From the NCBI GenBank assembly GCA_015711855.1, contig JACVJF010000001.1, forward strand, positions 6,164 to 70,163: DNA of 64,000 bases, written 5' to 3'. Under the pieces are notes generated by a model. It was not told the DNA's origin. It was given only the letters and a program-made list of their open reading frames with translations, and did no database searches. Below are positions 32,156 to 61,053 of this stretch, one piece after another. The position numbers and the translations under genes were made by a program. This DNA comes from Candidatus Solincola quzhuomuensis (GTDB taxonomy: Bacteria > Actinomycetota > Geothermincolia > Geothermincolales > RBG-13-55-18). Each line of letters starts with the position of its first letter. Within the stretch, counting starts at the first letter, position 1.

Positions 32156-32160
32156 CCCCT

Positions 32161-34227: not shown

Positions 34228-34534
34228 GAGCCATACCCCTCCTTTTTCCTGTCGGAAAGTTGGCATAAAATGCCATAACTTCCCGGCTGCCGGAACACCA
34301 CCTGACGTCAACAGGGGACGGCGGTAAGGCCTGTCGTCCGCCGAATTTTCCATGTCAGCCCCATAAAGCGACCAAGGACATTATAACAAATGCAAAGATC
34401 GCTCAGGGTTCGGGTTGGCGAGGGGCCGTGGAACTCGCCCACGCACGATAAATCGCCGCAAGCGGAAAATGGTGGCGGGAGAGGTTGCCTATGTCCGCCG
34501 ACGGAAGCCCGGGCGGGCATGCCCGGGAAAAAGG

Positions 34535-36498: not shown

Positions 36499-38337
36499 TC
36501 AGAGCCGACCCCTTTCATCGTAATAGTCGTCGAGAAGTCGCCCCACGTCTTCCCGGGTGAGCAGGTTGCCGAAGTAGTCGTGAAGGCGTCCGCCCCGGCC
36601 CCAGAGCGGCTTTTCGTCGAACCAGGCCTCTGGGGGACGGTCCTCCTCCGGCCCCAATCCCTCGCGAACGTTGAGCTCCCGGTAGAGTTCCCAGGAGGCG
36701 GCGGCTTTCCCCATCATCTCCTCCACGGTGAGTTCCAAACCGGTGACCGCGGCCAGTAGGTCCCTTACGAGGAGGGCATGGTAGAATCGGTTTATCTGGA
36801 AACGGTTGCAGAGGCCTAGGGAGCTGAAGAGGCTGAACCAGTCCTCGGAGTAACGGGTGAGCCTTCCCACGTTCATTCCCCATGGGGGCGAGAAGATGCG
36901 CTCCAAAGCATCTTCCGCGACACCCATGCGCTCGGTGAGTCGACGCAACCTCTCCTCCGTCAACCCGGGCAAGTAGGTGGCCGAGCCGGCGCTGGCCGAG
37001 GTCGGGCCACGAGGAGAGACGATCTGTTCGAACTCCATGGTTCCCAGTCCGCTCACCCGCGGGTCGTATAGGCAGTCCTGGTTCCGCACCAGCATGGTGA
37101 ACCGTCTGGTGTCCTCCCCGAAATAGGCCAGGGCTCCCCTCCAGCCCGCGGCCAGAGCCCTGCTCAAATCCCCTCTGCCCTCGGTAACGCATACCGCCAG
37201 TCCTCGCAGGAGTTCCGCTCCTCTCACCAGAGGCACGCCTTCCACCCGGTCATCCCTCAAGATGCCGTGCTCCCTGAGCTCCAGGAGGTAGGCCGCCTGC
37301 CAGCTCAGGGTCATGAAGTCCAAACCCAGGTCGTCCAGAAGGGCCAGGGTGGAGGCCGCCTCCTCGGCATCCTTCATCCCCAGGGCGCAGCCGATGATGG
37401 CCGCGTTGAGGAAGGAGGTGGAATACACGGTCTTCCCGGATCCGGGAAGCAGCAGTTCGTCCTTGTCGGCAAGGAAACAGGAGGGACAGGATATACGCCT
37501 TTTCTTCAGCTTCAGGTAGGCTTGAGGGCCGAACCGTTGGGTTGCCTCCTCGAGGTCCTTCTCCGTAGCCCCATAGGGTAGGAGCTGCGCGGCGTACATG
37601 GGCCAGGCCCCGATCATGCCCAGTTCGGCGGCGGCCTCCCTGAGCTCGTATCTTTCCAATCTCCTGTAGAGCTCCCTGACCAGGGCATACAGCCTTTCAG
37701 GATCGGCGATCCGCACTGCGCCGCTCCCCTTCACCAGGATAGCTTTCAGGTTTTTAGACCCCAAGACGGCGCCAAGTCCGCCCCTCCCCAGGGTAGCGCA
37801 AGCGTCGACCATGGCCAGGGAGGAATGGACCAAGTTCTCCCCCGCGGGCCCAATGGCCAGGACGGAGAACCCCGGGTAGCCTTCCCACAGCACCCGGGTT
37901 GTCTCCAGGATGCCTTTCCCCCATAGGCCGCTCGCTGGGATGAACTCCACCCTGTCGTCCTCCACGGCCAGAACCGTCGGCTCGGGCGACTTGCCCAAGA
38001 TGACCAGGTGGTCCCATCCCGCCCACTTGAGATTGGCTCCCACCCCCATGCTCCCAGAGGCGGAGGCGACGGCCCCGGTCAGGGGAAAACGCGCGTTGGC
38101 CATGACCCGGGAGGCGCCTGGAATCGGTGTACCCACGAAAGGTCCCGCTCCCAGTATCACCGGGTTCCCGGGGGAAAGGGGATCCGTCCCGGGTTGGGAG
38201 TGATCGAGGAACAGGCGGTTGTTGAGCCCGAAGCCGCCCAGGTACCCCTCAGCGTAATCAGTGGGTAGGTTGGAGACTTCTATCTCCTTTCTTTCCAGGT
38301 CCACCACCAATATCCGTCCCGTGTATCCTTCGCGCAT
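36499..38337 (-). CDS. aldehyde:ferredoxin oxidoreductase family protein (second, divergent paralogue)
   Basis: 'GRILVVDLERKEIEVSNLPTDYAEGYLGGFGLNNRLF' AOR N-domain and full-length pattern. Confidence 0.8.
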   Translation of the reverse strand: MREGYTGRILVVDLERKEIEVSNLPTDYAEGYLGGFGLNNRLFLDHSQPGTDPLSPGNPVILGAGPFVGTPIPGASRVMANARFPLTGAVASASGSMGVGANLKWAGWDHLVILGKSPEPTVLAVEDDRVEFIPASGLWGKGILETTRVLWEGYPGFSVLAIGPAGENLVHSSLAMVDACATLGRGGLGAVLGSKNLKAILVKGSGAVRIADPERLYALVRELYRRLERYELREAAAELGMIGAWPMYAAQLLPYGATEKDLEEATQRFGPQAYLKLKKRRISCPSCFLADKDELLLPGSGKTVYSTSFLNAAIIGCALGMKDAEEAASTLALLDDLGLDFMTLSWQAAYLLELREHGILRDDRVEGVPLVRGAELLRGLAVCVTEGRGDLSRALAAGWRGALAYFGEDTRRFTMLVRNQDCLYDPRVSGLGTMEFEQIVSPRGPTSASAGSATYLPGLTEERLRRLTERMGVAEDALERIFSPPWGMNVGRLTRYSEDWFSLFSSLGLCNRFQINRFYHALLVRDLLAAVTGLELTVEEMMGKAAASWELYRELNVREGLGPEEDRPPEAWFDEKPLWGRGGRLHDYFGNLLTREDVGRLLDDYYDERGRL

Positions 38338-38468
38338 ATTCCCTTCTCCCCTCGCCGCATCGCCAAGATCCGACCCCGAGAAAAACCAGCAACGCCCTCC
38401 GAAGCCCCTCATAACCGCACATCCCGGGGCCCTATATCGTCCTCACCACCTTAGCGAGGCGAGCCCGA

Positions 38469-38735
38469 TCATTTCTCCGACCCCTCGTCCTTCGTCAAGG
38501 CTCCGGCGGGACACAGGGCGGCGCATCGCGCGCATCGATCACATTCTTCCTTAAAAGCAGCGACGGCCCCCCAGCCTGGGAAAGTGAGGATTATCCGGCT
38601 AGCGGAAGGGCCGCATTCCCCTTCGTGGAGGAGCGAGCACACCATCTGGCATGTGCGGCATCCGGTGCACCTTTCGGGATGATGAATCAAAGCATTCCTC
38701 CCATGATATCTACGTCCGATGTCGACATTGTACAT
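38469..38735 (-). CDS. 4Fe-4S dicluster ferredoxin
   Basis: 'CTGCRTCQMVC' and 'CDRCARCAALCP' motifs; directly upstream of AOR paralogue. Confidence 0.8.
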   Translation of the reverse strand: MYNVDIGRRYHGRNALIHHPERCTGCRTCQMVCSLLHEGECGPSASRIILTFPGWGAVAAFKEECDRCARCAALCPAGALTKDEGSEK

Positions 38736-39654
38736 TCTTCGCCTACCTTGGTCATCTTAGGACGAGCAAGCTCAAGGAATGCGTTCGGTTTTGCCGAAAA
38801 CCTTCTATTTCAATCCATCGCCCAAAGGGGTGGTTGTCCATGGCCGGGTCGGGAAACAAAATGCGCCGTTCAACGCTCGCGGTTTCGCTATGGTTCTCAT
38901 CCTAATCCTGTCGATCGTCGCTTACTTTCTCTTGGACATCATTTTTTAACCAATCGCCGTATCTCCGACAACAAGAAGAAGGCCGTCCAGGAATCGACCC
39001 GCACCCTCGATGGCACAAGAAACATGTTAGTCTTAAGCGAGTTCAACCCCTCCTACCTCAAGGTCTTCAACCAGGAACTTGTCCGGCGGGTCTTGGGGAG
39101 GCGACCTGGACTGCCTTTACGACTTCGCGATACAGGTGGCTCTTCTCTTATATCCCGTGGAATACGCAAGCATCATAAAAGACGGGCGGGTAATGACCTA
39201 TGGCGCTCGTGCGGGATGGAACGTAGATCCCTCCCGAATGCCGACAACGCCGCCCGAGGAAGGATACCTGGTACTGAACAGGCTGGGGGGACGGGAAGGC
39301 TTTTTTATCTCCATTTACAACCCGGTAGACCTGAGTGTACTCGGGCTGTAGGCAAGGGGCATTGTGCGTGGTCAGCCCCATCGAAAGACTCAACCGCCAG
39401 GCCTAGATGATCGTGGAGGGCACCTTCGAGGGCGAGGCGGAAGTGGAAGAGGGCAGCGCTTTCGCCGCCCTGCAGGGGCTTCTCCGCAGCGGCCAGAGGG
39501 TGCTGCGCGGTCTCGACGAACGCTTCAAAGAAGAAAGGGGGTTTTACGACGGAAAAGAATAAAGTTTCCTGGGTCGATCAACGATATATTTTATGAATTA
39601 GCCGCCCGCAGGTGCGCTCGGTCCGCCGAGAGGAGAGAGTGGAAGGAGGAATAA

Positions 39655-39888: not shown

Positions 39889-40211
39889 GCTTGAGGAGCA
39901 GGCCCGGGGGATTTGCCCCCGGGCCTCATACACGGCAACGGCCTCGCGGGAAGATAAATCATTATAACCGCAAGGGTTGGGAAGCATCTCCTTCAAGCCC
40001 GGGAAAACCAAGTACAAAGCTTCAGGCAACGGGGGAAATCCGTGAACGAACCTTATCTTCCTGGGTTTTCCCGCGCCCTATACCACCCTTTAAGGCGAAA
40101 GATCATCGACGTCGGATCCCGAAGAGGGAACGGGTCAAAGCTTTCCTCACCATTTGCGCTTCTCCCTGATGGGTGACCGGGTTGATGGCCGCTGTGGATG
40201 TTGGGTTTCCG

Positions 40212-40820
40212 CTAGACCGCCAAACCCAGGGATTCCATGACCTCTTCCAACCTCTCCCGTTTTCCCCTCCACCTGTCCTCCCGGTAGAGGGCCGGGCAAT
40301 CCCGGAGGCGATGTTTCTCCTGCAGCAGGAGCAGGGCGAAGGCCAGACAGCTCTGCTCCCCGCACTCCCGGCAGTTGGTCTGGGGGAGAAGTCCGTAGAT
40401 GTCCAGGGGTTTTATCTTTATCTTCCCCTCGTAGACCGGCTTTATCTCCTTTCGGTGTTCATGGACGTAGTTCAATCGCTCCGCCAGCCAGGCCAATACC
40501 TCTTCGGCGTCGGCCACGTCGTCGGCCTTGGCTATGGTCACTCTGCGGGGGTACACCGTGACCAGCCGCGGACCCTTGGTGAAGGTGAGAGCGGGACGGT
40601 CGGCGGCATAGGTTGCCATCCCTGGCTTCCCCTCCGTTTGCCCGTCCTCTTGTCCCACTGCGGCGCCACCCTGCCCCACATAGGTGGCGTTGGCCAGAAC
40701 GGCGTTCAGATAAGGCAAAAGATCGCTCACATCCACCGGGATACGGGCAATGAGCCTTATCTTGGTCTCGTCGGCGAAGCAGGGTTCCACCTGTTCTATC
40801 TCTATCCTCTCGATGAGCAT
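40212..40820 (-). CDS. uncharacterised Fe-S protein with C-terminal PF04060-like (CFeSP AcsC/CdhE N-terminal-type) 4-Cys domain
   Basis: 'LPQTNCRECGEQSCLAFALL...DCPAL'; N-domain 'LLPYLNAV'; paralogue of 50704..51228; SD 'GAAGGGAGGAG'. Confidence 0.6.
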   Translation of the reverse strand: MLIERIEIEQVEPCFADETKIRLIARIPVDVSDLLPYLNAVLANATYVGQGGAAVGQEDGQTEGKPGMATYAADRPALTFTKGPRLVTVYPRRVTIAKADDVADAEEVLAWLAERLNYVHEHRKEIKPVYEGKIKIKPLDIYGLLPQTNCRECGEQSCLAFALLLLQEKHRLRDCPALYREDRWRGKRERLEEVMESLGLAV

Positions 40821-41122
40821 TCTCCTCCCTTCAAAATCGCCCGAGCCGCTTTCGCCCCGGCCGATATGCCCCATCCCTGCGCTTTAGCCCCCTAAACTCG
40901 GCCATACTTGTCCGCGCGGGTTTGGCCATCGGCGCTTCCTCCGCAGGAGGACATCGGCCCACATGTCCGCAAGCCTGGTTTCTTTGCGCTAAAAGCCTCA
41001 CCGGGGACCGCATCGAGAAGCGCCCGTTTTAACTCCCAGCTCGCGGAGAGAAAGCCCAGGGCGCTCCACAATCCGGAATCGCCCGCGTCGTTAAAGCGGA
41101 CTCCTCATTCCCGCACAGATCC

Positions 41123-42223
41123 TCAGAGGACCCCTTTCGCTTTCCTGACCGACCACCCCCTCGCGGCGAGGACGTCCTCGGCTTGCGATAAAACTCCCCG
41201 GATCTCTCCCTCAGCGCCTTCCAGTATCAGGAAATTTCCCCCGCACATATCCCCCCGCCTCCAGAGGACCTCCGGAAGCGGAAGAAAGGCCTCTCCCAAT
41301 ACCAGGCGCAGGACGGCCAAGACCGCTCGGACCTTCCTTCTTTCTCTTTCTTCGGCGGGTATGTCCCCGGAAAAGAGGGGGAGGAGATTCCCGCTTCCCA
41401 CCGGCCCCGGCCGATTATCCCGCAAGAACATCGCCTCGTCCACCAGCTCCTCGGGGTCCATGCGGTAAAGGTCCTCCCGCCGCAGCAATATCTGGCGGAC
41501 GCCGTAATCCCTCACCAACTCACCGGGCCGTGGAGGCAGTCTTTCGGCGTGGATCACAGTCACGACGCTTTTCCCCAACGCCTCCCTGAACTCCTCGGGG
41601 CTCCAGGGTAGTTCACCGCGATCCCCAAGGGAAAGAATGAGGTAGACCAGGCCCAGAGAGACCATCTGCCCGGAAATCTCTCTTAAGCGCCTCAGATCCC
41701 CCCTCCCGCCTGGCCTTTTGGCCATCAACTCCGAATCATCTATCAGTCCTTCTCCGGATAGGTCCAGGACCAGGGCGGGAACCACCTCCCGACCCGCCAG
41801 CGCTTCGGTCAGGGTTTCCGCGGCGCGACAAAGAACCTCTTCCTGCTCCTCCATTCCCAAGAGATACACGATGTCCTCGCGTTCCAGCGGTTCATTTGTG
41901 GATAGTTTTTCCATAACTGCGGCGAGCCTGGGGTGATCCGCAAACTCTGAAGCAAGTTTTCCCGAAAGCCCCTCGTCGGCCCTTGCGCCCACCTGCTCCG
42001 GGTAAAGTACCGCCTTGACCAAAACCGCATGTCCTTCCAGCAGGTCCACCGCTTTCCCGCCCTCCGAGACGGGCAAAGCTATGGCCGTGGTGCACAGCTC
42101 CCCGGCCTGCGGAGGAGCGGGCACCAGCCTTGCACGGAAACCCCTCTCCTTGAGTAGAGCCTCGGCGCGCAGCATGTGGTGGGTGGATGGAAAGACGAGG
42201 ACGGCTTCGCTTCTAAGGGCCAC
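41123..42223 (-). CDS. hypothetical protein with N-terminal DUF3343-like domain
   Basis: 'AVLVFPSTHHMLRAEALLKERGFRARLVPAPPQ' resembles DUF3343 (putative S/Se carrier); remainder unrecognised, no radical-SAM Cys triad. Confidence 0.5.
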   Translation of the reverse strand: MALRSEAVLVFPSTHHMLRAEALLKERGFRARLVPAPPQAGELCTTAIALPVSEGGKAVDLLEGHAVLVKAVLYPEQVGARADEGLSGKLASEFADHPRLAAVMEKLSTNEPLEREDIVYLLGMEEQEEVLCRAAETLTEALAGREVVPALVLDLSGEGLIDDSELMAKRPGGRGDLRRLREISGQMVSLGLVYLILSLGDRGELPWSPEEFREALGKSVVTVIHAERLPPRPGELVRDYGVRQILLRREDLYRMDPEELVDEAMFLRDNRPGPVGSGNLLPLFSGDIPAEERERRKVRAVLAVLRLVLGEAFLPLPEVLWRRGDMCGGNFLILEGAEGEIRGVLSQAEDVLAARGWSVRKAKGVL

Positions 42224-42226
42224 AAC

Positions 42227-42616
42227 TTATTCTCCCCGCAACACTTCTCCCGTCTCCAGAGTATATTTCACGTCCTCCAGATCGGGTACCCTCCCATAGG
42301 CTACCAGCTTGCCGTCCACGGCAACTGCCGGGAGCACGTAACGCAGGGAGAAGGCCACCCGGGAGGCGAAGTCCTCCTCCCCTATATCGCGCAGGTAAGC
42401 GGCGAGTTTTTTTAGCCCCTCGGCATAGCCCCGGTCGTCGCTCATTGCGTACCGGACAATCTCTGCCGAGGGAAACCTCTCTTCCACCTCGGACATCAAT
42501 ACCTCCAGCCGGGACAGCTTCTCGGCGTCCCTCAAGGATACCGGCCCGGAACAGGTACACGCCGGTGCGGGTATGAAGAATTCCACCTGGTGATCCCTTT
42601 CAGCCATACTTGCCAA
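42227..42616 (-). CDS. ArsD-like thioredoxin-fold arsenic metallochaperone (tentative)
   Basis: N-terminal 'FFIPAPACTCSG' vs ArsD 'FDPAMCCSTGVCG'; '...LPAVAVDGKLVAYGRVP' resembles ArsD C-region; 4 nt from ACR3 operon partners. Confidence 0.4.
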   Translation of the reverse strand: MASMAERDHQVEFFIPAPACTCSGPVSLRDAEKLSRLEVLMSEVEERFPSAEIVRYAMSDDRGYAEGLKKLAAYLRDIGEEDFASRVAFSLRYVLPAVAVDGKLVAYGRVPDLEDVKYTLETGEVLRGE

Positions 42617-42757
42617 CCGAGTCCTGTCTAGCCTTGGTATGCGGACTGATCAAAGGGCCGGTGCGCTCATAGTCTTTCGATTTCTTCCCGTTATTGACGC
42701 CATAAGAGCACTATTAGTCCCTTATCGAGTCGTCGAGGTTCGGCTTGCGAAACAAGC

Positions 42758-43927
42758 TCACACATCATTTGCCGAACCTCCGTTGGCGGCTACGGCGGCC
42801 GGTACTTCCTCGGGACGGAACCAGTGCTGGGTGCGTAAGCATATCTTAACCAAAAGAAGCATCACCGGCACCTCGATGAGCACCCCCACCACCGTGGCCA
42901 GGGCGGCTCCCGAGGCGATGCCGTAGAGCACGGTGGCCGTGGCGATGGCCACCTCAAAGTGGTTGGAGGCTCCGATCATGGCCGAAGGAGCTGCGTCTCG
43001 ATAATTGAGCCTTATCAGTTTGGCCAATCCGTACCCTATCCAGAATATGAGGTTGGTCTGGATGAACAAGGGTATGGCTATATAGAGGATGGACATGGGC
43101 TGGTCGATGATCAGCTGACCCTTCAGGCTGAAGAGGATGATCAAAGTCACCAGCAGGGCGATGATGGTGATGGGCGTGAGATAGTGGATGAACTTTTCCT
43201 GAAACCAATCCATGCCCTTGCGCTTCAGTATCCATTTCCTGGAAAAATATCCGGCTATCAGGGGGAGGGCCACGTATATGCCCACGGAGAGCACGATGGT
43301 CAGCCAAGGAACGGGCATGCTGTTGACGCCCAGGAGCCATCCGCCGAGGGGAGCGTAAAGGAAGAGCATGGTCAGGGAGTTGATGGCCACCATGACCAGG
43401 GTGTGGCCGTCGTTCCCCTTGGCCAGATAACCCCATACCAGAACCATAGCCGTGCAGGGGGCGATGCCCAAAAGGATGCACCCCGATATATAGGAACGGT
43501 AGAGCTCCGGCCTCAGTACCCCGTCCACCATGATACCCCCGGTGGTGGGTACATAGTGGGTACCGAGATCCGCGCCGGGAATCCATCTCTTGAAGACGAA
43601 GCCCAAAAAGAAGGTGGCGATGGCCACCATGGTGAAGGGCTTTATGCACCAGTTCACGAAGAGGGTGAGAAGCACCGGCTTGGGCGTTTTGCCCGCCTTA
43701 ATGACCTCGGCGAAGTCGATCTTGACCATGATGGGATACATCATGAAGAAGAGGCATATGGCGATAGGGATGGACACTTGGGCCACGGATATCTTGTCCA
43801 AGGCCTCTCCCATGCCCGGGAAAGCTTTGCCCAGCAGGATGCCTATACCGATGCACACCAAAACCCAGACAGTCAGATATTTCTCGAAAAAGCCCAATCT
43901 ACGCGCCACCTTAGGCTGCTCTACCAA
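42758..43927 (-). CDS. acr3: ACR3 family arsenite efflux transporter
   Basis: 10-TM protein with ACR3 hallmarks '[19 protein letters not shown]', '[12 protein letters not shown]'. Confidence 0.85.
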
Positions 43928-44399
43928 TTTTCTCCTCCTTCATTTACGTCTTACGCCGGTTATCTGGAACCGTTCGCCGCGAGTGCCCGCCCGGCAGAGA
44001 CAACATGCCTCTCACTATCAGCCGCATTCCCGACATTCGCGTCGAGAGGGCCGGCCGGCATTCTCCGTTCTCTTAAAACCGCCAACATCGCTCTCTTCCC
44101 TGAGTCCCCGATGCAAACTATTCCGGGTCGTTCGCGAAACCCGGATCAAACGGAACCCTCCCCATAACGGAACCCCCTCACGCCACGTTTTTCAGATGTC
44201 TTCTCCGTGCCTAAGAATTCGAGAAAAGGCCGTTTCGACCTCTCCGCTGACGACGGAGCCGCCGAATAATGGGATGAGGTCCTTCCCCCTAACGACCGGA
44301 GGCCTTTCGGCAACGAGAAACGGGTTTGTCTAGCGAAATCAGCGCCCATAGGATCGACCTTCCTGTGAGAACAACAGGTTACCGAACCCATATAGTACT

Positions 44400-44514
44400 C
44401 CCGTCGTGCCTATTTGGGGCGGCTGATCATAATTAACTATCTATTGACCAAACTAAATTTATCGATATATTAATTATTAAAGAAAATCGATGTCGAGGTC
44501 CATAGTCCACTACC
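44400..44514. promoter_or_regulatory. AT-rich divergent promoter/operator region between acr3 operon and arsR
   Basis: 'atcgatatattaattattaaagaaaatcgat': two ATCGAT palindromes flanking AT-rich core immediately upstream of arsR ATG. Confidence 0.35.
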
Positions 44515-44889
44515 ATGGCTATGAAAGCAAGAGAGTGCAGCGCATCAGAAACACATACCTCATCGGCTTACGAAGAAGCTTGTCCCGCCAAAGGGCGACT
44601 ATTTCTTCCCGAGGTCGACGAGGAAGCATTGAGAAAAACGGCGAAGCTGCACAAGGTCCTCTCGGATGAAACGCGGCTGAAGATACTCCTTTTTCTGCGG
44701 GAGGGTGAACTCTGCGTCTGCGATATCGTCGACGCCCTGGGTAAGCCGCAATCCACCGTTTCGCACCATCTCTTCCTCTTGCAGAATTCAGGCCTCATAA
44801 AAGCCAGAAAAAAGGGGCGCTGGAACATGTATTCCCTAAGCGATACGGCGAGGGCTCTCGGCGACTACTTCCTGAAAATCGGCTTGTAA
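44515..44889 (+). CDS. arsR: ArsR/SmtB family metalloregulator
   Basis: wHTH with 'ELCVCDI' metal-binding motif; divergent from acr3 operon. Confidence 0.85.
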   Translation: MAMKARECSASETHTSSAYEEACPAKGRLFLPEVDEEALRKTAKLHKVLSDETRLKILLFLREGELCVCDIVDALGKPQSTVSHHLFLLQNSGLIKARKKGRWNMYSLSDTARALGDYFLKIGL

Positions 44890-44954
44890 AGCCTGCCGGA
44901 CCGTAAAACGTTATACGAAGCGCACTATAACATCGGACTACGAGGCCCGGCGCA

Positions 44955-45830
44955 TCAAGGCCTTGCTCTCAGCACTAGGACCGGGATCTCGCTGTGGTTG
45001 ACCACGCTCTCCGCCACTCCGCCCAGCAATTTTTCAGGCAAGCGGCGATGTCCAAGCGCTCCCAACACGATGAGCGAGGCACCGATCTCCTTCGCCACCC
45101 TCAGGATGGTCGAGACGGGACCGCCTTCCTCCAGGCGGGTTTGTACGTTGCCGCAATGTGCCCCCAGGCAAGAGGCGAGCTCGCGCAGTTTCTCCATCCC
45201 GTGCTCCGCCTTTTCCTACTCCATTAATGTCTTCATGGCGCCCACATACGCGTCCTCGTCACGCTGCACATGCAAAAGAGTTATATCCTCGCAACAGGAC
45301 GAGGCCATCTCCTCCAATAGAGGCCGGAGGCTCTCCGCGTAGGCGGAGAAGTCGGTAGCCACAAGCACCTTCTCGAAGAGGAGGTCGCATACGGCCTCGC
45401 ACTCATACCCCTCATCCTTTTCGTGGATCCTACACTTATGCACCAACACCGGGCGGTCGGCCAACCGGAGCACCTTACCGCTGACGCTCCCGGTGAGGAC
45501 CCGCTCAAAGAACCCCGCGCCGTGTCCGCCGAGGTAGATCAAGGAAACATCCTCTTCAGCCGCCACGCGGAGGATCTCCCTGGCAGGCGAGCCCGGCTCT
45601 ATCCTTCGGACAACCTCCAAGCCTTCGATGTCCGGCAGGCGGCCGATCCTTTCGAGTTCCCGGCGGGCATAGGCCTCCATCAAATCCTTGGCCATTTCGG
45701 CGTGCCTGGCATCGACGGCATAGAGCAGGATCAACTCCTTCATCCCCGCCCTAACCAGTTCGCCCACACAGCCCAGAAGCCTCTCGGTGTACGGCGAGAA
45801 ATCCACGCCTAAGAGCACCTTTTCGAACAT
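44955..45830 (-). pseudogene. tandem universal stress protein (UspA x2) interrupted by in-frame TAG
   Basis: USP domain 1 intact; domain 2 runs 'ITLLHVQRDEDAYVGAMKTLME-TAG-EKAEHGMEKLRELA...IPVLVLRARP' in one frame; TAG at ~45216-45218; SD 'AAAGGAGGGG' at start. Confidence 0.6.
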
Positions 45831-46075
45831 GACCCCTCCTTTGATACAACAAGGTTGTTCCGACGAATGCAGGTGGCGGGCTACGCATAAACAGCATCTG
45901 TTCAAAACTTCATCATCGCATCGCCGCCCTTCGTCACGGGTCCGCACCTGCGTCGCTTTCCGCTTGCCGTCTCGGCAGGAAAAGATCCTATATATCGCCC
46001 TACAGCCTTGCGATGACGGACGTTTCTTGAAACGCTCGTTTCCGGCGCGGTCTTCACTCATTCGTTTGGAGGCGA

Positions 46076-46807
46076 TCATCCCTCCTTCCGCTCCAGCAGT
46101 GCCTTATACACGTTCTTGCCCCTCACGCGGGGCATGGCCTTTTCCCGCAGGGATTTAAGAGAATCGAGGATATCGTCAAGGTATCTCGCCGGGAAACCGA
46201 GCACGCATTCCCCCTCCGTCAGATCGGTGGCCTCGCGACAACCGTAGCAGCCTATGGACATATTCAGGCGCTGCTGCACGAAGGGGGTGATGGTCACGTC
46301 CACGCATGTGGCCTGAAGAACTGCGGTGTCGAAATGCAACCTTCCCCCGGTCTTGAACACGTGGGCCAATGCGATCCACATCAGGTGCTCGGCCATGGAC
46401 TCGACCACCACCACGTCCGGCTCCTCCTCCGCCTCCCCCAAAGGGCATAAGGACACCATCTTGTACCTGCCCATCTCCAGGCGTTGCATGGTGGAGAAGG
46501 TGTGCTTCACCGCCTCCTGGTTGCCAAAAATCCCCATCGCCGTCGGCATCTCCCCACTTATGAGGCGAGGCGGTGGATCGGCGAATCCCAGGGCCCACGC
46601 GGCAGCCGGGCAGGATATGTTCTCGGGGGTCAGCAGCACGTGCCTGCCCCTCCTCGCCTCCATGAGCACCTGACAGTAGCGCCGCTTGTCCGGTAGGTCG
46701 CACCCCGACAGAGGGGCTAATTCCTCGTGGAACTTCACCGCCACCGGACTGGTGGTCATGCCCAATATCTCCTCTATCTGGGAGGCTTTAATCGAAAAGT
46801 CGGACAT
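46076..46807 (-). CDS. DUF169 family protein
   Basis: 'ISCPAAAWALGF' and 'GCYGCREATD' DUF169 hallmarks. Confidence 0.6.
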   Translation of the reverse strand: MSDFSIKASQIEEILGMTTSPVAVKFHEELAPLSGCDLPDKRRYCQVLMEARRGRHVLLTPENISCPAAAWALGFADPPPRLISGEMPTAMGIFGNQEAVKHTFSTMQRLEMGRYKMVSLCPLGEAEEEPDVVVVESMAEHLMWIALAHVFKTGGRLHFDTAVLQATCVDVTITPFVQQRLNMSIGCYGCREATDLTEGECVLGFPARYLDDILDSLKSLREKAMPRVRGKNVYKALLERKEG

Positions 46808-46950
46808 TTTCTACCTCCTGCTTTTGTGCCATCGGAAAACATAGGTCATCACGCCGGCCTCCAAAACTGCCCGGCATGCCTCTCTCAAGGTCATACCGCT
46901 CCCAGGAACGAGGCTATATCCGCATTGGGCCTTTCCCTGCGGACGTCATG

Positions 46951-47534
46951 TCACGTCTGGGCCTCGCCAGGGGTTTCGTCCGGCGCCTCGTAACCTTCTT
47001 TGAAAAAGACCCTCTCGATGACCTCACTCAAGATGACCACCACCAGGGTAGCCAAGTAACGAGCGAGCATGAACTTCCAACCCAGAAACTGCAGCTCCAT
47101 CAACTCGGCGGGGATTTTTATGCACGCCCAAGCCGAAAGGAAGATGATCATATTCTCCACCTTGGCGCCCTTCCTCAGCAGCATCGACGTCAGCGGGAAG
47201 GCCACTTAGAGCGGGCCCATGGGTATACTCCCCAGGATGAAGGAAAGGATGACCCCCTTGACCCCGGATTCCTCACCCAGAAACCGGACGATGAACTCCC
47301 TTTCCACTCATACGCTTACCAGGCCCATGAGGATAAACACCGCGGGAAGGATCACGGCCATCTCCTGAAATATTCCCAAGCAACGTGTCGGGCTTGAGCG
47401 CCTTTCTCAGGAAGCGTGATGACCATGACCAGGAAAAGGGGTGCGATGAGGAAGAGGGTGGCATAATCCCATCGTATTCGCTTCCGAAGGCTCTCCTTTT
47501 TCCCCTCGGCCCCGATGTCGTCGTTTTTCCTCAT
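46951..47534 (-). pseudogene. DUF318/ArsP-like permease half-domain, disrupted by multiple frameshifts/stops
   Basis: four short frame-shifted pieces each resembling the N-half of the intact permease at 49227..50285. Confidence 0.45.
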
Positions 47535-47977
47535 CCTACGATCACCCCCACCACCACCGCGATGGCCACGGCGGCGACGAAGCTCAAAGCGTTTCTGGCG
47601 ATGGCGAACTTCTTTCCCAGCTCCTTGATCTCCAGGGGCAGGAACACGAAACCGACCATGGTCAGGGTGGTGATGAAGGCCGCGGTGGCCATGTAGCCGG
47701 CTCCCATGTCCAGCAAGGACCTGGCCAAGGGGAAGGCGATGATGACCGGAATGAAGAGCACCGCTCCTAAAAACGAGGCGATAGCCACCCCCTGCGCGCC
47801 GCTGTTCTTTCCGATCGCCTGCGCGATTACCTTGGGCGGGACGAAACCCACTATCAGGCCCACCACCAGGATGATGGCCAGGACACTGGGCAGAAACCTT
47901 ACAAAGCCTTTATAGGCCACGCGAAGCGCAGCTGCCGTCTTCCTCTGATCCTTGACCACACTCAGCAGCAGCAGCAC
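47531..47977 (-). CDS. DUF318/ArsP-like permease, C-terminal-half homologue (148 aa)
   Basis: aligns with C-half of 49227..50285 ('GNAIASVSGALMYFATL...' vs 'GAQGVAIASFLGAVLFIP...'). Confidence 0.5.
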   Translation of the reverse strand: MLLLLSVVKDQRKTAAALRVAYKGFVRFLPSVLAIILVVGLIVGFVPPKVIAQAIGKNSGAQGVAIASFLGAVLFIPVIIAFPLARSLLDMGAGYMATAAFITTLTMVGFVFLPLEIKELGKKFAIARNALSFVAAVAIAVVVGVIVG

Positions 47978-48058
47978 GCCGGTCAGCGCAGCGCGAGAAT
48001 GACGATGGTGGTTATGTCCATGCCGCTCCCTTCTTCCTCTTCCCTTGGGGCATTCTCA

Positions 48059-48412
48059 TCACAGCGCGTCCTCCAAGAAATTGACGCAGGCGTCCTCGGG
48101 AGCGAAGAGGTTGGCGGCCACTTCCACGGCTTTGAGGGTCGCCGCAGGCACGATGCAGGAGTTGCGGCAGCAGTGCTCCGAGGCCGCGCGGTATACCGCC
48201 GTGTCCCGCATGGGCAGGGTCATCTCGCTACCGGGGTTGACCTCCTTGAGCTCCTCCGCCAGCTCCGCGATATGCTCGCAGGAGGTCTCGAACTGCAAGG
48301 ACACGATTGTCTGGCTGCTCTTCCTGGCCGTGATCACCGTCTCCTTGCCGCACTGCCCTCCTTTGACAAACACTATGGCCATGCATTCCCTCCCCCGATC
48401 CCACCCGGACAC
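48059..48412 (-). CDS. DsrE/DsrF-like sulfur-relay family protein (tentative)
   Basis: size and pattern 'AIVFVKGG...CEHIAEL...ACVNFLED' reminiscent of DsrE/YchN fold. Confidence 0.35.
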   Translation of the reverse strand: MSGWDRGRECMAIVFVKGGQCGKETVITARKSSQTIVSLQFETSCEHIAELAEELKEVNPGSEMTLPMRDTAVYRAASEHCCRNSCIVPAATLKAVEVAANLFAPEDACVNFLEDAL

Positions 48413-48593
48413 TTATGGAAACGGGCTTCATCCTGCAACCCGGGTCACCCCGCTCATGACCCATGGTGCCCGAACTCCCTTCCCCTTTGTTGCCACACGA
48501 GTTTCTATCCCCCGGGTTTCGGCGCTTGCGGCTTGCACTTCTTGCGGGTTGAGGATCGCCGCTCTTAGGCCGGCGTTTTTAAAACAACGGTCT

Positions 48594-48977
48594 TTAACCC
48601 TTCGTCGCCAAGGCCTCCTCGATGCGTCGCTTGACTTCCGCCTTGATCCTCTCCTTCTCCTCTTCGTCATAGGCGAGCACAGGGGCCTTCTTCACCCCGA
48701 AATCCTCGACCATCTCCACCCGTAGGTCGGGCTTGCGGCCGGAGTGCTCCTCCACGATCTTGGAGCAGCACATAACCGGGCAGCCCTCGATGATCACGAA
48801 TAATTCCGCACCGGCTATTTTGTTGAGGCCCGTGTCCTTGTCGATGGCCACCGCGGGCAGGCATACCAGGTGGTAATCCTCGTTCTCCTTCACCAGCTCC
48901 GTGGCCACCGCCCCTGCCAGCTGTCCGGTGTTGGCGGCTCCGTAACATGTAGCGATAACAACCTTGAGCTCGGCCAT
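48594..48977 (-). CDS. DGC-domain protein (putative Zn/Fe-binding)
   Basis: 'VVIATCYGAANTGQLAG...YHLVCLPAVAID...FVIIEGCPVMCCSKI' matches DGC domain layout; SD 'AGAAGGAGGAAA'. Confidence 0.55.
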   Translation of the reverse strand: MAELKVVIATCYGAANTGQLAGAVATELVKENEDYHLVCLPAVAIDKDTGLNKIAGAELFVIIEGCPVMCCSKIVEEHSGRKPDLRVEMVEDFGVKKAPVLAYDEEEKERIKAEVKRRIEEALATKG

Positions 48978-49226
48978 TTTCCTCCTTCTGTTCCTTCGAT
49001 GCACGCATACAGCTGCTTTGCCTGCCTTCAAGCCGGTTCCAGAGCCATCCTTCGCCGTTTGCGTTTCGGCTCATAGGTATTACGGCACATCATCCGAACC
49101 GGATCGTACCCGCTGGGACCGCAAACGCTTGCGTACGATGACTCCGAGAAATACTGGCGCTGCCTTCCGCGATTTGTGGATACTTATGTCTTACGCCACA
49201 AACACTTTCTCCTCCGCTCAGCGTCA

Positions 49227-50285
49227 TCAAGCGAACATCCCGAACACGAACCCGGTGCCCATGGCGAAGAGACACACCAGGGCGATGTAGGTCAAGGCTT
49301 TCTTAGGGCCTAAAATCCTGATAAGCACTATCATGCTGGGCAGGGATAGCGCCGGACCGGCCAGCATGAGGGCCAGTGCCGGCCCCTTGCCCATTCCCAA
49401 GTCCAACAAACCGCGCACTATGGGCACCTCGGTGAGGGTGGCGAAATACATGAGGGCGCCGGAGACGGAGGCGATGGCGTTTCCCCCTATGGTGTTGCCT
49501 CCCACGTACCTGGAGATCACCTCGGGCGGGATTAGCTCCTTTATCACGCCGACCAAGAAGACCCCTAAAAGCAGCACAGGGAGGATCATCTTCACCATGC
49601 GCCAGGTCTCAAGGAACCAGGTCTTTATCTCCTCCCTGGTGAACCACCTCTTCACCAGGTAGATGAGTAAAGCCACGAGCAGCACTTCCCCTCCGTACTT
49701 GTAGATGTTGGCCATCTTGGCCGTGCCGTAGACCAGGATGGCGATGAGCACCCCGAAGTAGGCCAGGTTCTGGCGGCCTGGTCGTACCCGACTCCCGTCG
49801 TCGTAGGCGAAAACTCCGGCGGCCTCCGCCTCGAGCATCCGTTGCTCCTCTTCCTTGTGAAAGATGCCGGCCATGATCAGGCCGATGACGAAGGCGAATC
49901 CCACCGCTCCGATGATGCGGGCCACCCCCAGGTCGTACCCCAAGAGGTGGATGGAATAGGTCATGGCCAGGATGTTTATGGCCGGCGAGGAATAGAGGAA
50001 GGCCACCGCCGGCCCCAGCCCGGCCCCCTTCTCCCTTATCCCCGTGAAGAGGGGAAGCACGGTGCAGGAGCACACGGCCAGAATCGCCCCGGAAACCGAG
50101 GCCACGGAATATGCCAGGACCTTGTTGGTACGCGGACCGAAATACTTCATCACCGCCGCCGTGTTCAGGAAGGCGGCTATGGCCCCGGCGATGAAAAAGG
50201 CGGGGACCAAACAGAAGAGAGTATGCTGGGCCACGTATTCGTAGAGGGTCTTGAGGCCCTCCAACATCAACCCGCCGAAAGTCAT
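49227..50285 (-). CDS. arsP: DUF318 permease, ArsP-like (organoarsenical efflux permease family)
   Basis: two homologous 4-TM halves, 'AVCSCTVLP' resembling ArsP 'TPFCSCS' motif. Confidence 0.65.
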   Translation of the reverse strand: MTFGGLMLEGLKTLYEYVAQHTLFCLVPAFFIAGAIAAFLNTAAVMKYFGPRTNKVLAYSVASVSGAILAVCSCTVLPLFTGIREKGAGLGPAVAFLYSSPAINILAMTYSIHLLGYDLGVARIIGAVGFAFVIGLIMAGIFHKEEEQRMLEAEAAGVFAYDDGSRVRPGRQNLAYFGVLIAILVYGTAKMANIYKYGGEVLLVALLIYLVKRWFTREEIKTWFLETWRMVKMILPVLLLGVFLVGVIKELIPPEVISRYVGGNTIGGNAIASVSGALMYFATLTEVPIVRGLLDLGMGKGPALALMLAGPALSLPSMIVLIRILGPKKALTYIALVCLFAMGTGFVFGMFA

Positions 50286-50322
50286 GGGTTATCGCTTCCT
50301 TTCCTGGAATTGTTAAAAGCTC

Positions 50323-50565
50323 TCAAGACTCGAACCAGCTCCTTATCTCTTTCTTCGAAGGAACCTTCCCCTTGGAGACCACCTTTCCGTCGATCACCAC
50401 CCCCGGGGTGACGAGGACGTTGTACTTCATAATCTCCGACATGTCGGTCACTTCCTCCACCTCGGCCTCCAGGCCAAGCTCGGAAACCACCTCCTTGATG
50501 GCCTCCTTGGTGGCGATGCACTTCTTGCATCCGGGTCCCAGTACCTTGATCTCCATCTGACTCAC
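50323..50565 (-). CDS. thioredoxin-fold redox-active disulfide protein
   Basis: 'KVLGPGCKKCIAT' CxxC, 80 aa; typical partner of DUF318 permeases. Confidence 0.75.
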   Translation of the reverse strand: MSQMEIKVLGPGCKKCIATKEAIKEVVSELGLEAEVEEVTDMSEIMKYNVLVTPGVVIDGKVVSKGKVPSKKEIRSWFES

Positions 50566-50703
50566 CTCCGTTCAACTATATTCCTTTCCCCGTCATCGAA
50601 GGTCTTTCGTTCCGCCTGTAATGGGCGCACGACCGATATACACTTCCCCCGCGACATCCAGGGCTTCCAAGCCGACCGAACACGTTCCGTGCGACCCAAC
50701 GAC

Positions 50704-51228
50704 TCAGAGCCCCAGCTCCCTCAACTTTTCCAAATTCTCCTCCATGCCCGCCTCCAGAAGGGGAGGGCAATCCTCCACGCATCTCTCCCCTTCTACCAGC
50801 TGTGCAGCGAAGGCCATGCAGGAAGGCACTCCGCACTTCCCGCAGTTGGTGCGGGGAAGATAACGCAAAATGTCCAGGAGCTTGGGGGGAACCCGCGTGG
50901 TGTGGTCGGGCTCTATCTCCGCCCGTCGCTCCCAGATATCGTTTAACCGCTGCACGACCTTCCTGGCCGTTCTCTCGGCGTGGCCGCGGTCCTTGAGGTT
51001 GTTGATGCTGATCACGTTCTCGCGCAACGCGTACTTGTGAGCGCCTTCCCTCCAGACGATGGTCGGGACCTTGGAATCGTAGAAGGCGTTTTTCACTACG
51101 GCGTTGACGTAGGGCATGAGAGGTCCCAGATCGGCGTCCGTCTTCAACCGAGCCACCCAGATGGGCGACCCCGGGTCGCAGGGCGGCGAGAACATCTCCA
51201 ACTCGTAATGGTTTATGAACATGGACAT
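50704..51228 (-). CDS. uncharacterised Fe-S protein with C-terminal PF04060-like 4-Cys domain (paralogue 2)
   Basis: 'LPRTNCGKCGVPSCMAFAAQLVEGERCVEDCPPL'; N-domain 'LMPYVNAV'; paralogue of 40212..40820. Confidence 0.6.
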   Translation of the reverse strand: MSMFINHYELEMFSPPCDPGSPIWVARLKTDADLGPLMPYVNAVVKNAFYDSKVPTIVWREGAHKYALRENVISINNLKDRGHAERTARKVVQRLNDIWERRAEIEPDHTTRVPPKLLDILRYLPRTNCGKCGVPSCMAFAAQLVEGERCVEDCPPLLEAGMEENLEKLRELGL

Positions 51229-51266
51229 CCTTCTCCACTCCTAAAGCATCTGCTTGCGCTGCCGGC

Positions 51267-51485
51267 TCACCCCTCGCTCTTGCTCTTCCCGGTCACTATC
51301 TCTCCCTGGTTTGGTCGGTACGACTCCTCGAAGACCGGCACGCAGTGCGGAAGATCGGCCTCTTTGACCTTTTTCTCCAACACCTCCCGGATGAACTTCA
51401 AGGCTTCCTCGCGGTCGTCGTCGGCCAGGATGCGCTTTATCCAGATGAGCTCCTCCTCGCCGAGGGACACGGCTATCTTCTTCAT
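51267..51485 (-). CDS. small conserved hypothetical protein (72 aa), 'EELIWLKRI' family copy 1
   Basis: ATG overlaps stop of upstream arsR by 4 nt; paralogue of 53198..53398. Confidence 0.5.
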   Translation of the reverse strand: MKKIAVSLGEEELIWIKRILADDDREEALKFIREVLEKKVKEADLPHCVPVFEESYRPNQGEIVTGKSKSEG

Positions 51486-51895
51486 CCTCTTTTCCCTCCT
51501 CGCCCGTTCGCTTCGCTCCCCCGCTTCGCTCGTGCCGTTGGCGCCGGCGTGCAACACGCCGCATCCGGCCCTTCGCCAGGTTGGCCCCGATTGCCGAGGT
51601 AACGCAGAAATAATTCGGTGAGATTCCCGAGTCTCGCTTCCGCTACCGAATAATACGAGGACGTCCTCTCCTTCCTCGCTCTAAGAAAACCGGACTCTTT
51701 GAGCACGCTGAGGTGGTGTGAGGCCAATTGCTGCGAGATGCCGAGCTCCCTTTCCACCTCGCACACACAATGCTCTCCCCTGAGCAGCAGGCAGATTATG
51801 CGCAGACGGTTGGGGTCGGACAGGACCTTCAGTCCCTCCGCGAGTTCCACTATTCCTGGGTCCACAACGCACTTCAGAGTTTGCCCTTCGGCCAT
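51482..51895 (-). CDS. arsR: ArsR/SmtB family metalloregulator (second copy)
   Basis: 'RLRIICLLLRGEHCVCEVERELGISQQLASHHLSVLKESGF'; C-terminal tail with Cys pair. Confidence 0.8.
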   Translation of the reverse strand: MAEGQTLKCVVDPGIVELAEGLKVLSDPNRLRIICLLLRGEHCVCEVERELGISQQLASHHLSVLKESGFLRARKERTSSYYSVAEARLGNLTELFLRYLGNRGQPGEGPDAACCTPAPTARAKRGSEANGRGGKRG

Positions 51896-52329
51896 CTCTC
51901 CGACCTTTCACCAATTATTATTTGTACTAATTGCAATTTGTATTTTAACTAACCACGGCTCCTTGTCAATGACCAATACCATCATTGGAGGAGCGCCCCA
52001 TTTTTTCCTATCCGGATTGCCACCTCTTTGTCGGCCGGTTTGTCACGTTGCGTTACTGCCTGCCTTAGTCAAGACTCAAGACGCCGACCCCGTGATCCAG
52101 AGAAAGAGACAGCATCGAGACGCTTTCTGTGCCGGCTTCGTCCTCCATGCCTTGAGGTGGCGAGAAGCCCAGCGACACCGTTTACACGTTTAAGAAAGGC
52201 TCGGGCCTGGCTAGACCTCGCGGCGACACAACAACGGGAGTTGGGACAACCCAAAAAACCCGGCAACCGTACACTCCTGTTTGAATCCTGCGAAGGATAT
52301 GGTCGAGGGTTGCACGACATCACCCCAAA

Positions 52330-52430
52330 TTGGACCAACGTTGATCCCGCCGAAAAAAAACAATTGACATGATATGATTTTTTATAAAAATTATAAAAAT
52401 TCTTAATTCTTGCCAAATATTATCTCAGCA
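52330..52430. promoter_or_regulatory. AT-rich promoter-like island (TTGACA ... TATAAAAAT x2)
   Basis: 'caattgacatgatatgattttttataaaaattataaaaatt', GC far below window average, upstream of roadblock-like gene. Confidence 0.3.
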
Positions 52431-52488
52431 TAGGTTTCTTTGTCGATGGTAAAGCGAGAGGGAGGACGAAATGTAGGTTAGCGAGGAA

Positions 52489-52860
52489 ATGCAAAAGGTG
52501 ATCGATTCCCTTTCGGCGCTGCCGGGGTATATCTGCCATGGGCTGGTAAACTACCGCAAGGGGGTTTCCGCTTTGAACGAGGATTCCGATCCTCAAGACG
52601 AGGTGAACTACTTCCCTCAGCAGTGTTCGGCCATCATTCAGACCCTGGAAAAATCGCTGCAGAATCTGGAAGGAGGAAATCCCGACAAGCTGATGGTCGA
52701 ATCCTCCAAGATGACCATGATGATCTTTATAGTGAACGACACTTACTTCTGCGGTGTGGGGCTCAGCCCGGAACCCCCGCGGACGAAGCGGCTCGCCTCC
52801 TCGAGGAACTGCGGGAATCTTTCCGAAAGCAGCTTCCCGGATAAGGGGCAACGACCTTGA
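52489..52860 (+). CDS. roadblock/LC7 (MglB-like) domain protein (tentative)
   Basis: size and pattern 'LPGYICHGLVNYRKG...LMVESSKMTMMIFIVNDTYFCGV'. Confidence 0.4.
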   Translation: MQKVIDSLSALPGYICHGLVNYRKGVSALNEDSDPQDEVNYFPQQCSAIIQTLEKSLQNLEGGNPDKLMVESSKMTMMIFIVNDTYFCGVGLSPEPPRTKRLASSRNCGNLSESSFPDKGQRP

Positions 52861-53197
52861 AGCCGGTAGAAGGTTGAGTGCGCGAAGAGCCGCTTCAGAG
52901 GGAGATGGCCATTCGTATTTTTTTCTCCAGACCCTGGTGACTTTGTGACGACACATAATCCGGATAGCGCGCTGTGGCTTTTCCGGACTCGGTGTGCTAT
53001 GCTCCGTGCGCACATCGCCCCCCATTTTCGGCCAACAAGGGATGGGTGGAACAGGATCTATAAGGGCGGCGAAAATGCCCCTTCGTTTCGTCCGGCGGTT
53101 TATGGTTTTGAAATAAATCGAGGATGCTTTGCGCAACTTTTAGGATGCGCATGTTATCTTAGTAAAAGACCGCTCGAGCGGAGACCGGAGGTCCGGC

Positions 53198-53398
53198 GTG
53201 AGAAGGCTGTTGTTGAGCCTGGATGAGGACGAGCTGATCTGGCTGAAGCGGATCATCACCGACCAGGACAGAGACGAGGCCCTGGCGTTCGTCAACAAGA
53301 TACTCAAACCTCGCATGAAGGACGCGGAACGCCCCACGGGCCTGCAGAGGACCTTCGACTCGGGAGGTCCGCCAGGGCAGATAGGCGTGCCCCGCTGA
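53198..53398 (+). CDS. small conserved hypothetical protein (66 aa), 'EELIWLKRI' family copy 2
   Basis: 'SLDEDELIWLKRIITDQDRDEALAFVNKIL' vs copy 1 'SLGEEELIWIKRILADDDREEALKFIREVL'; 38 nt upstream of arsC. Confidence 0.5.
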   Translation: MRRLLLSLDEDELIWLKRIITDQDRDEALAFVNKILKPRMKDAERPTGLQRTFDSGGPPGQIGVPR

Positions 53399-53435
53399 TT
53401 TAAGGCATGGAGGGCGAGGGAGCGAGGGAGGACGC

Positions 53436-53837
53436 ATGGGCGGGAAGAAAGTTCTTTTCGTATGCGGCGAGAACGCCGCGCGTAGCCAGATGGCCGAGGC
53501 CTTCTTCAACAGCTTGGCCCGGAAATGGCGGGCGGAAAGCGCGGGAACCTTCCCGGCGGAAAAGGTGAACCCTTTGGCCGTGCAGGCCATGCAGGAGACC
53601 GGCCTGGACATTTCCTCCGCCACCCCCAAAGTCCTCGACCTGGGGCGTCTGGGCGATTTCGACCGCATCATCTCCTTCGGCTGCATCGCCAAAGCCGCCT
53701 TCCCCGCGCGGGACCGCCTGGAGGAATGGGCCCTTCCGGACCCCGGCAAGGGTGACATGGAGCTCATGCGAAGCGTAAGGGATGAGATAAGGAGGCTTGT
53801 CGGTTCCTTGGTCAAGGAGCTTGAGGGCGGCGACTGA
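53436..53837 (+). CDS. arsC: arsenate reductase, LMW-PTP family (thioredoxin-coupled)
   Basis: 'KVLFVCGENAARSQMAEAFF' CX5R P-loop plus downstream Cys. Confidence 0.85.
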   Translation: MGGKKVLFVCGENAARSQMAEAFFNSLARKWRAESAGTFPAEKVNPLAVQAMQETGLDISSATPKVLDLGRLGDFDRIISFGCIAKAAFPARDRLEEWALPDPGKGDMELMRSVRDEIRRLVGSLVKELEGGD

Positions 53838-54083
53838 CCGTTTGGACGCCCATCCTGTTGAAAACATGCCCCGTTCGCCCTTTCCTAGGCTTCAGGTACA
53901 AGCAGCTTCTTACCATCCTCCATATATACGGCCATCCAGCAGCCAATGGAGGTTCCCTTCGAGGTACACACCCAACAAGCCCGCCGCAAAGGAACCTGGT
54001 CACGAGCAAAAAGGGCAGGAAACGGAGTCGAGCGAACCCAGGCCTCCCCTGGGTCACACGCGGGTTTCCGGTTATTCGGCCGC

Positions 54084-56987: not shown

Positions 56988-57430
56988 CGTCACCCCCTTG
57001 GTAATCCCCCCGAACGGCAATTCCCGCTGGGCTACTCCTTCGGACATGCGGCTGGGAATTCATGAACAGGATAGCACCTCAACCCCCGTCTATCCATCGA
57101 TCTCCATAATAATGTCATTCGTGCCATCTGTCAAACATGCATCCACATTTTCGCCATGAAACCTAAGGATCTGCTCGTAGAGCCGAGGCTCGATAGAGGT
57201 GCGGCGACCGAGCAGAAAAAATCCTTTTTATGCCTATATAAGGCAAGGCGATGGTGGTATGCGAAAGAGATAGGCGTTCCAAAAGAGAGTGCGCGTTGCC
57301 AATCGACGGTTGAAGTAATATTATGAATATAAAGGTCTTATAGGTTTGTGAGGCAGATCGTTCGGAGGTCCAAGCCTTTCGGCCTGGGCCTCCTGTCACT
57401 TTAGGAACGGGAAAAGAAAGGAGATGCCAA

Positions 57431-60818: not shown

Positions 60819-61053
60819 CTTCATCCCCTCCTTTCGTCGAACCTCCTTTGCCGGGCCCCTCGGACTTCCGCCGGCATCGGAAAAGCCGGCCGTGGAGAGC
60901 ACGATTCGCATACCATCTCGGTAAGCCAAAAAGCTGCTCTCCTTTCTCGCATCCTTCCCATGGGCGGCCTCCCGGCCGTGTGCCATCGCCTATATCTTCG
61001 GGCGCACCGATTAAGAAATTGTTAACTAACTGATAAATCGTTGCAAAATCCCT

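Follow-up and report, generated by a model that had tools for sequence, protein, structure and literature searches.

Results

The tandem universal-stress-protein (USP) gene on the minus strand at positions 44955-45830 of the window, by which the whole 64,000-nt stretch of analysed DNA is meant, consists of 291 codons, and its codon 205 is TAG. The window copy belongs to the tandem-USP family as a truncated allele. The interrupting TAG is best explained, with a probability of about 0.72, as a young nonsense allele or pseudogene produced by an ordinary GAG-to-TAG point mutation. A single G-to-T transversion in the lineage of this Geothermincolia-like actinomycetotal MAG would have changed Glu205 (GAG) to TAG, and termination at this codon under the standard code would give a 204-aa product composed of domain 1, the Cys-rich linker, and β1-α1-β2 of domain 2. 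Domain 2 of the truncated protein is almost certainly non-functional because the nucleotide-binding loop and the C-terminal strands are missing.

Layout of the interrupted USP gene

The gene and its parts were located as follows, with the basis of each assignment given in parentheses.

45835..45839, minus strand: GGAGG, Shine-Dalgarno-like, 4 nt 5' of the ATG (direct sequence reading)
45830-45828, minus strand: start codon ATG (direct sequence reading)
45219..45830, minus strand: N-terminal open part, 204 codons, from ATG to ...AMKTLME (sequence; secondary-structure map of the AF2 model)
45216-45218, minus strand: in-frame TAG, codon 205, 'cta' on the plus strand (sequence; GAG in the ortholog on contig L002)
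44958..45215, minus strand: in-frame continuation past the TAG, 86 codons (sequence, family alignment, AF2 model)
45195..45207, minus strand: possible restart site with GGAG (45207-45204), a 6-nt spacer, and ATG (45197-45195, conserved Met212) (sequence)
44957-44955, minus strand: natural TGA stop of the full-length gene (same position in 291-aa orthologs)

A complete USP domain 1, a Cys-rich linker hairpin, and β1-α1-β2 of domain 2 were encoded by the N-terminal open part. The frame downstream of the TAG (EKAEHGMEKLRELA...PVLVLRARP, also given as EKAEHGMEKLRELASCLG...SEIPVLVLRARP, and then TGA) supplied the rest of α2, β3, α3, β4, the G-x2-G-x9-G nucleotide-binding loop, α4, and β5 of domain 2, and these 86 codons were conserved, with no additional stop or frameshift. 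Pfam analysis of the read-through product revealed Usp (PF00582) in two stretches with an E value of 9e-49 and a score of 166 bits against a cutoff of 24. An ATP-binding loop of the form G-x2-G-x9-G-(S/T) is the motif of the UspFG/MJ0577-class USPs. The loop of domain 1 was formed by G101, G104, and G114-S115, which were invariant in the family alignment, and that of domain 2 by G257-x2-G260-x9-G270-G271, with G instead of S/T and with its codons located 3' of the TAG. Both Usp domains and the ATP-binding loop of a tandem USP were found at the locus, but an uninterrupted frame for the two domains was not. The sequence and the Pfam results confirmed the original prediction of a tandem-USP gene split by an in-frame TAG inside its second domain, the coordinates and quoted peptides of which were exact.

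Position of codon 205 in the fold

The structure of the protein was viewed in the AlphaFold (AF2) model of P0001, an intact homolog that has the same length as the window protein and aligned with it without gaps (mean pLDDT 80, pTM 0.83). In this model, domain 2 was composed of β1 (154-158), α1 (163-179), β2 (182-189), a low-confidence loop (190-197), and α2 (198-225), followed by β3, α3, β4, the glycine loop, α4, and β5. The model placed codon 205 at the N-terminal end of helix α2, just past the low-confidence loop, and the TAG therein interrupted domain 2 between β2 and most of α2, within the Rossmann-like fold and not between the two domains. A stop at this position spares domain 1 and the Cys-rich linker, and two thirds of domain 2, including G257-x2-G260-x9-G270, are lost.

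The tandem USPs 3LOQ (Archaeoglobus fulgidus) and Rv2623 (M. tuberculosis, PDB 3CIS) resembled the window gene in having two Usp domains and about 290 aa. The USP family profile matched 3LOQ end to end (residues 5-288, E = 1e-45) and also matched 3CIS. Unlike these two proteins, the window copy was cut at codon 205, and its family contained the Cys-rich inter-domain hairpin (HKCR...CE..C) and an SCC motif. The TAG was located on a Glu-rich stretch of 16 residues that was present in the window family but missing from 3LOQ, the nearest solved structure. Because the alignment column was occupied by E or K/R, the stretch was deleted in 3LOQ, and a low-confidence loop adjoined it in the AF2 model, codon 205 is a variable surface position, neither a catalytic nor a conserved site.

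Orthologs with a sense codon at the TAG site

A search over 5.8 billion proteins with the USP sequence yielded the 204-aa product itself together with many intact proteins of about 291 aa. The relatives were Candidatus Solincola and other Geothermincolia MAGs. The protein P0009 (204 aa, NCBI, from a contig of 89,303 nt) was identical to the N-terminal open part, and its 90%-identity cluster included the intact 291-aa protein P0121, encoded on contig L002 (Logan SRR24425660). This contig carried the closest relative, with the USP genes being 90% identical in amino acids and 90.3% in nucleotides. The codon of L002 at the TAG site was GAG (Glu), from which the TAG differs by a single coding-strand G-to-T substitution (plus-strand position 45218, C to A). 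In the family alignment, Glu occupied the codon-205 column in every close relative, and Lys or Arg did so in the distant ones. Analysis by tblastn over 56 fetched loci showed about 45 further homologous loci without a stop in the region, all with sense codons (E/K/R) at this position, and the sole exception was locus L001, described below; TAG was found at codon 205 in no ortholog.

Nei-Gojobori estimates against L002 gave a dN/dS of 0.23 (dS 0.23) for codons 1-204 and of 0.15 (dS 0.32) for codons 206-291. The low ratio and the lack of more stops or frameshifts past the TAG showed that the downstream part has not drifted. This leaves three readings, namely a mutation that is recent compared with the divergence from L002, an erroneous base, or a C-terminal part that remains in use. 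The lesion appears to be young, judging from the sequence, because the downstream 86 codons are intact and bear signatures of purifying selection. Like ordinary bacterial pseudogenes, the gene had a premature stop one step from the sense codon of an intact 291-aa ortholog (GAG in L002), multi-hit pseudogenes nearby, and surroundings in which the mix of stops matched the mutational supply. In contrast to such pseudogenes, it had only one lesion, and neither relaxed selection nor further lesions were visible yet past the stop.

A sequencing, assembly, or strain-consensus error would explain the same difference if the gene of the cells were intact (291 aa, with GAG) and the T had arisen as an artefact of the MAG consensus. 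The one-base difference from the ancestral codon, the intact remainder of the gene, and the low dN/dS past the TAG are all compatible with this explanation. The truncated allele was also present in only one assembly of the 5.8-billion-protein collection. Exact-protein look-ups with the truncated USP, the neighbouring DUF169 protein, and ArsR found no independent assembly of the strain on record, and a scan of GTDB genomes and JGI metagenomes yielded no second copy of the strain, only relatives of ≤72% identity and the Logan contig L002. However, roughly 50 other genes in the 64 kb were intact, which indicates a low overall error rate; all the other lesions were concentrated in two genes, as expected of real pseudogenes; and a natural nonsense allele was found elsewhere as a strain variant between L001 and L003. 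A base-call error is therefore considered unlikely, less so than the other alternatives but less likely than a young nonsense allele, and we infer that the T is real in the cells. The reading of the original prediction that a pseudogene or an error was the simplest account is supported by the GAG ortholog, the mixed stop types, and the other pseudogenes of the window.

Other damaged genes in the window

A composition-guided scan was performed for stops with coding-like sequence on both sides. With 45-codon flanks, it returned the USP gene only, and with 30-codon flanks it also returned other broken genes, which were assigned to two pseudogenes.

about 18026-18930, minus strand: bPH_2/SHOCT membrane protein pseudogene (YdbS/YdbT-like, about 303 aa in relatives)
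about 46951-47534, minus strand: ArsP_1-type half-permease pseudogene, 1.1 kb from the USP gene

The reconstructed bPH_2/SHOCT gene could be aligned over 100% of its length with intact homologs (301-313 aa), and its identity to the best of them was 74%. Its TAG at 18860 replaced a Trp that was invariant in all aligned homologs, and its TAG at 18503 stood at a position of Tyr/Phe in the homologs. Two deletions, of 1 nt and 2 nt, lay in short runs of T and A close to 18750 and 18690; they shifted about 20 codons out of frame, and four more stops occurred there in the original frame. The original prediction had counted the USP gene as the second case of an in-frame amber in an otherwise undamaged gene. 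This part did not stand, as the other amber gene, probably the bPH_2/SHOCT gene, contains two TAGs and two frameshifts.

Two Candidatus Solincola loci, L004 and L005, contained intact genes with 78% amino-acid identity to the ArsP_1 half-permease. In the window copy, TTCAAGGAG had become TTCAGGAG by loss of 1 nt near 47365, and a Trp and a Tyr of the Candidatus Solincola orthologs were replaced by TGA at 47308 and TAA at 47206, respectively. The partner half-permease (47531-47977) and a full-length ArsP_1 gene (49227-50285) were intact. Selenocysteine-type recoding of the permease TGA was considered and rejected, since the codon aligned with Trp in the orthologs and the gene was also frameshifted and interrupted by TAA.

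Altogether, the window contained five premature stops (three TAG, one TGA, and one TAA) and three frameshifting deletions, all of them in three genes (4 + 3 + 1). Because the lesions were confined to these three genes and roughly 50 others were intact, this clustering is the pattern of real pseudogenes and not of diffuse assembly error. Long-read homopolymer error was rejected as a general explanation on similar grounds, since the three deletions of 1-2 nt in short A/T runs were confined to two genes that also carried nonsense substitutions. The two multi-hit pseudogenes are older than the USP lesion.

TAG as a working stop codon

The stop codons of 41 confident genes in the window were TAG in 7, TGA in 25, and TAA in 9. 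TAG-ended genes of the window included the following.

6292: PilT-like T2SSE
16729: response regulator
26280: CpaB/RcpC
27961: RR-GGDEF
31877-32164: ThiS/MoaD family, ending ...PPLAGG-TAG
40212: FeS protein
57859: FKBP

The Pfam matches of the listed genes other than ThiS/MoaD reached the C-terminus, and the extensions past the TAG were short and not coding-like in all of them. The C-terminal Gly-Gly of the ThiS/MoaD family must be a free C-terminus, and the ThiS/MoaD gene with Gly-Gly directly before TAG is the clearest case of termination at this codon. TAG is a working stop in the organism of the window, as had been suggested from the pilT, response regulator, cpaB, and GGDEF genes. Over the whole window, TAG ended about 9 of about 55 genes (about 16%). 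A genome-wide reassignment would leave TAG unused as a terminator, and the window genes, on which this was judged, did use it.

One interrupted codon by itself forms no statistical pattern, and the comparison was made with all the premature stops of the window. The supply of nonsense mutations was counted over the 13,393 codons of the 41 confident genes. A single substitution separated 2305, 947, and 777 codons from TAG, TAA, and TGA, respectively (57% : 24% : 19%), and GAG alone accounted for 780. Three TAGs among five nonsense codons are what is expected from the one-step mutational supply under GC-rich codon usage. GAG, CAG, AAG, TGG, and TAC are abundant in a GC-rich genome, and most nonsense mutations there are therefore expected to create an in-frame TAG.

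Recoding of the TAG, either as pyrrolysine, by a suppressor tRNA, or by programmed readthrough, would give a full 291-aa protein, and the intact and conserved frame past the TAG and the share of TAG among the in-frame stops of the window (3/5) are in line with it. Pyrrolysine-encoding genes (mttB/mtbB/mtmB, with the pylTSBCD cassette) likewise show an in-frame UAG followed by a conserved frame. In these genes, however, orthologs share the UAG, which occupies a catalytic position, and pylT and pylS are present in the genome. The USP gene differed from them in that its orthologs had GAG or another sense codon and none had TAG, the position was variable, the family was unrelated to the known pyrrolysine families, and no pyl component was present in the window. 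The three in-frame TAGs of the window stood for E, an invariant W, and Y, a set that no single inserted amino acid could mimic. Additionally, the other TAG-bearing gene was frameshifted and beyond repair by readthrough, in-frame TGA and TAA occurred 1.1 kb away, the parallel stop in L001 was TAA, and TAG ends genes of the window, including the ThiS gene right after Gly-Gly.

No recoding machinery was visible in the window, as the original prediction had noted. ARAGORN and Rfam on the 64 kb detected neither a tRNA(CUA) nor any suppressor or unusual tRNA, and returned only tRNA-Ser(CGA), tRNA-Arg(ACG), and tRNA-Ser(GGA); Rfam found no element besides these three ordinary tRNAs. A Pfam scan of about 50 window genes found no pyl gene and no methylamine methyltransferase. 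A PYLIS-like structure was sought in the 119 nt from the TAG, and the RNA folded no better than shuffled sequences (-47.5 kcal/mol, z = -1.56, 17 of 200 shuffles as stable), which was not significant. PylRS genes have been reported in only two Actinobacteria genomes (PMC9630628), a finding that counts in favour of recoding, but a literature search found no paper linking Geothermincolia to pyrrolysine. Amber recoding is accordingly regarded as extremely improbable, and the suggestion of programmed readthrough or Pyl-type decoding found no support in the replaced residues, in the TGA, TAA, and frameshifts of the window, or in the Gly-Gly-TAG of the ThiS gene. A pair of in-frame ambers is no evidence for pyrrolysine unless the TAG is conserved in orthologs and pyl genes are present. 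The USP is an accessory stress protein of an uncultured Geothermincolia-like MAG, and a young nonsense allele of its gene has little biological weight; the practical value of the analysis lies in the negative result on recoding.

A second split allele in a related locus

The sole exception among the fetched loci was P0024 (58% identity, JGI sample 3300033149, locus L001), in which a TAA was located 4 codons upstream of the aligned TAG position. The JGI gene caller listed an 88-aa Usp gene just downstream of this TAA. The sister sample 3300033150 (L003) contained an intact 291-aa allele with GAA at the site, from which the TAA of L001 differs by a G-to-T change; the TAA lies at 3263-3265 of L001 and the corresponding GAA at 5621-5623 of L003. 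One extra GAG codon was also present nearby in the split allele of L001 compared with L003. Because the two contigs were 99.78% identical over 4.5 kb, the TAA of L001 is a strain-level polymorphism. The chance of two random nonsense codons this close in a 291-codon gene is roughly 3-10%, as a rough estimate in which the Glu-rich stretch was considered. Two independent Glu-to-stop alleles within 4 codons are therefore mildly unexpected, which hints that the site may be unusually tolerant.

These alleles bear on the question of whether the tandem USP tolerates a cut at the start of α2 of domain 2, or was even selected for it, either as a two-chain protein or as a recurrent adaptive loss-of-function polymorphism in an arsenic-resistance cluster. 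For a two-chain protein, translation would stop at the TAG and re-initiate at the ATG of Met212, and the chains of 204 aa and 80 aa would re-assemble as a tandem USP. The ATG lies 18 nt past the TAG and is preceded by the Shine-Dalgarno-like GGAG, so the 80-aa C-terminal fragment could be made from it if the putative site were used. In both split alleles (TAG in the window and TAA in 3300033149), which came from unrelated populations, an in-frame start codon followed downstream. The conserved downstream frame, the independent cut in L001 with its called 88-aa gene, and the location of the break beside a low-confidence loop, in a stretch deleted in 3LOQ, are also consistent with a tolerated split. 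However, the GGAG and ATG were equally present in intact orthologs, including L002, as plain codons (Ala-Glu...Met). Only 2 of about 47 loci were cut, each with a near-identical intact sister allele, which argues that the split is not fixed in any lineage, and the cut falls within the Rossmann-like fold (β2 to α2/β3) instead of between the domains. A tolerated or selected split is thus improbable, more so than a base error, although recoding is far less likely still. If the recurrent split were true, it would be a small curiosity on the fold tolerance of USP domains. The young nonsense allele remains the preferred reading of the window TAG.

Genomic surroundings

The USP gene was located within a cluster of the arsenic-resistance type that comprised ArsP_1 permeases, DUF169, ArsR, ACR3, DGC, DUF6951, and an arsenate reductase of the LMW-phosphatase type. 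The arsenic/metalloid-type island spanned about 40200-53900 of the window, and the same gene set accompanied the USP gene in L001 and L003. Besides the permeases, the following members were identified.

40212-40874 and 50704-51228: FeS-motif proteins
41123-42223: Se/S-carrier-like protein
42758-43927: ACR3/SBF
44515-44889: ArsR
46076-46807: DUF169
48059-48412: DUF6951
48594-49031: DGC-domain protein
53436-53837: LMW-phosphatase-type arsenate reductase

Synteny between contig L002 and the window extended over about 10 kb, from 45866 to about 35180, and the USP gene was the best-conserved segment. Nucleotide identity over this region was mosaic, with 90% for USP, 84% for the aldehyde:ferredoxin oxidoreductase (AFOR), 80.5% for ArsR, and only about 67% for ACR3. 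About 1.3 kb of the window (roughly 40864-42145), containing the Se/S-carrier-like gene, had no counterpart in L002. The mosaic suggests allele replacement or insertion in the island.

Two AFOR genes were present in the window on the minus strand, one in the region 31877-34353, followed by the ThiS/MoaD-like gene that ends in Gly-Gly-TAG, and the other at 36499-38412. A ThiF-family gene was found at 24654-25523. Three open reading frames gave no Pfam match at E ≤ 1e-5, namely 55104-57047 (minus strand, 647 aa), 60288-60986 (minus strand, 232 aa), and 38625-39410 (plus strand, 261 aa); the composition of the last one was only weakly coding-like (GC3 0.49), and it may not represent a real gene. 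The longest open reading frames of the M50 peptidase/CBS gene (22100-23314, plus strand) and the nitronate monooxygenase-like gene (23199-24470, plus strand) overlapped by about 115 nt, and the true start of the latter is probably further downstream.
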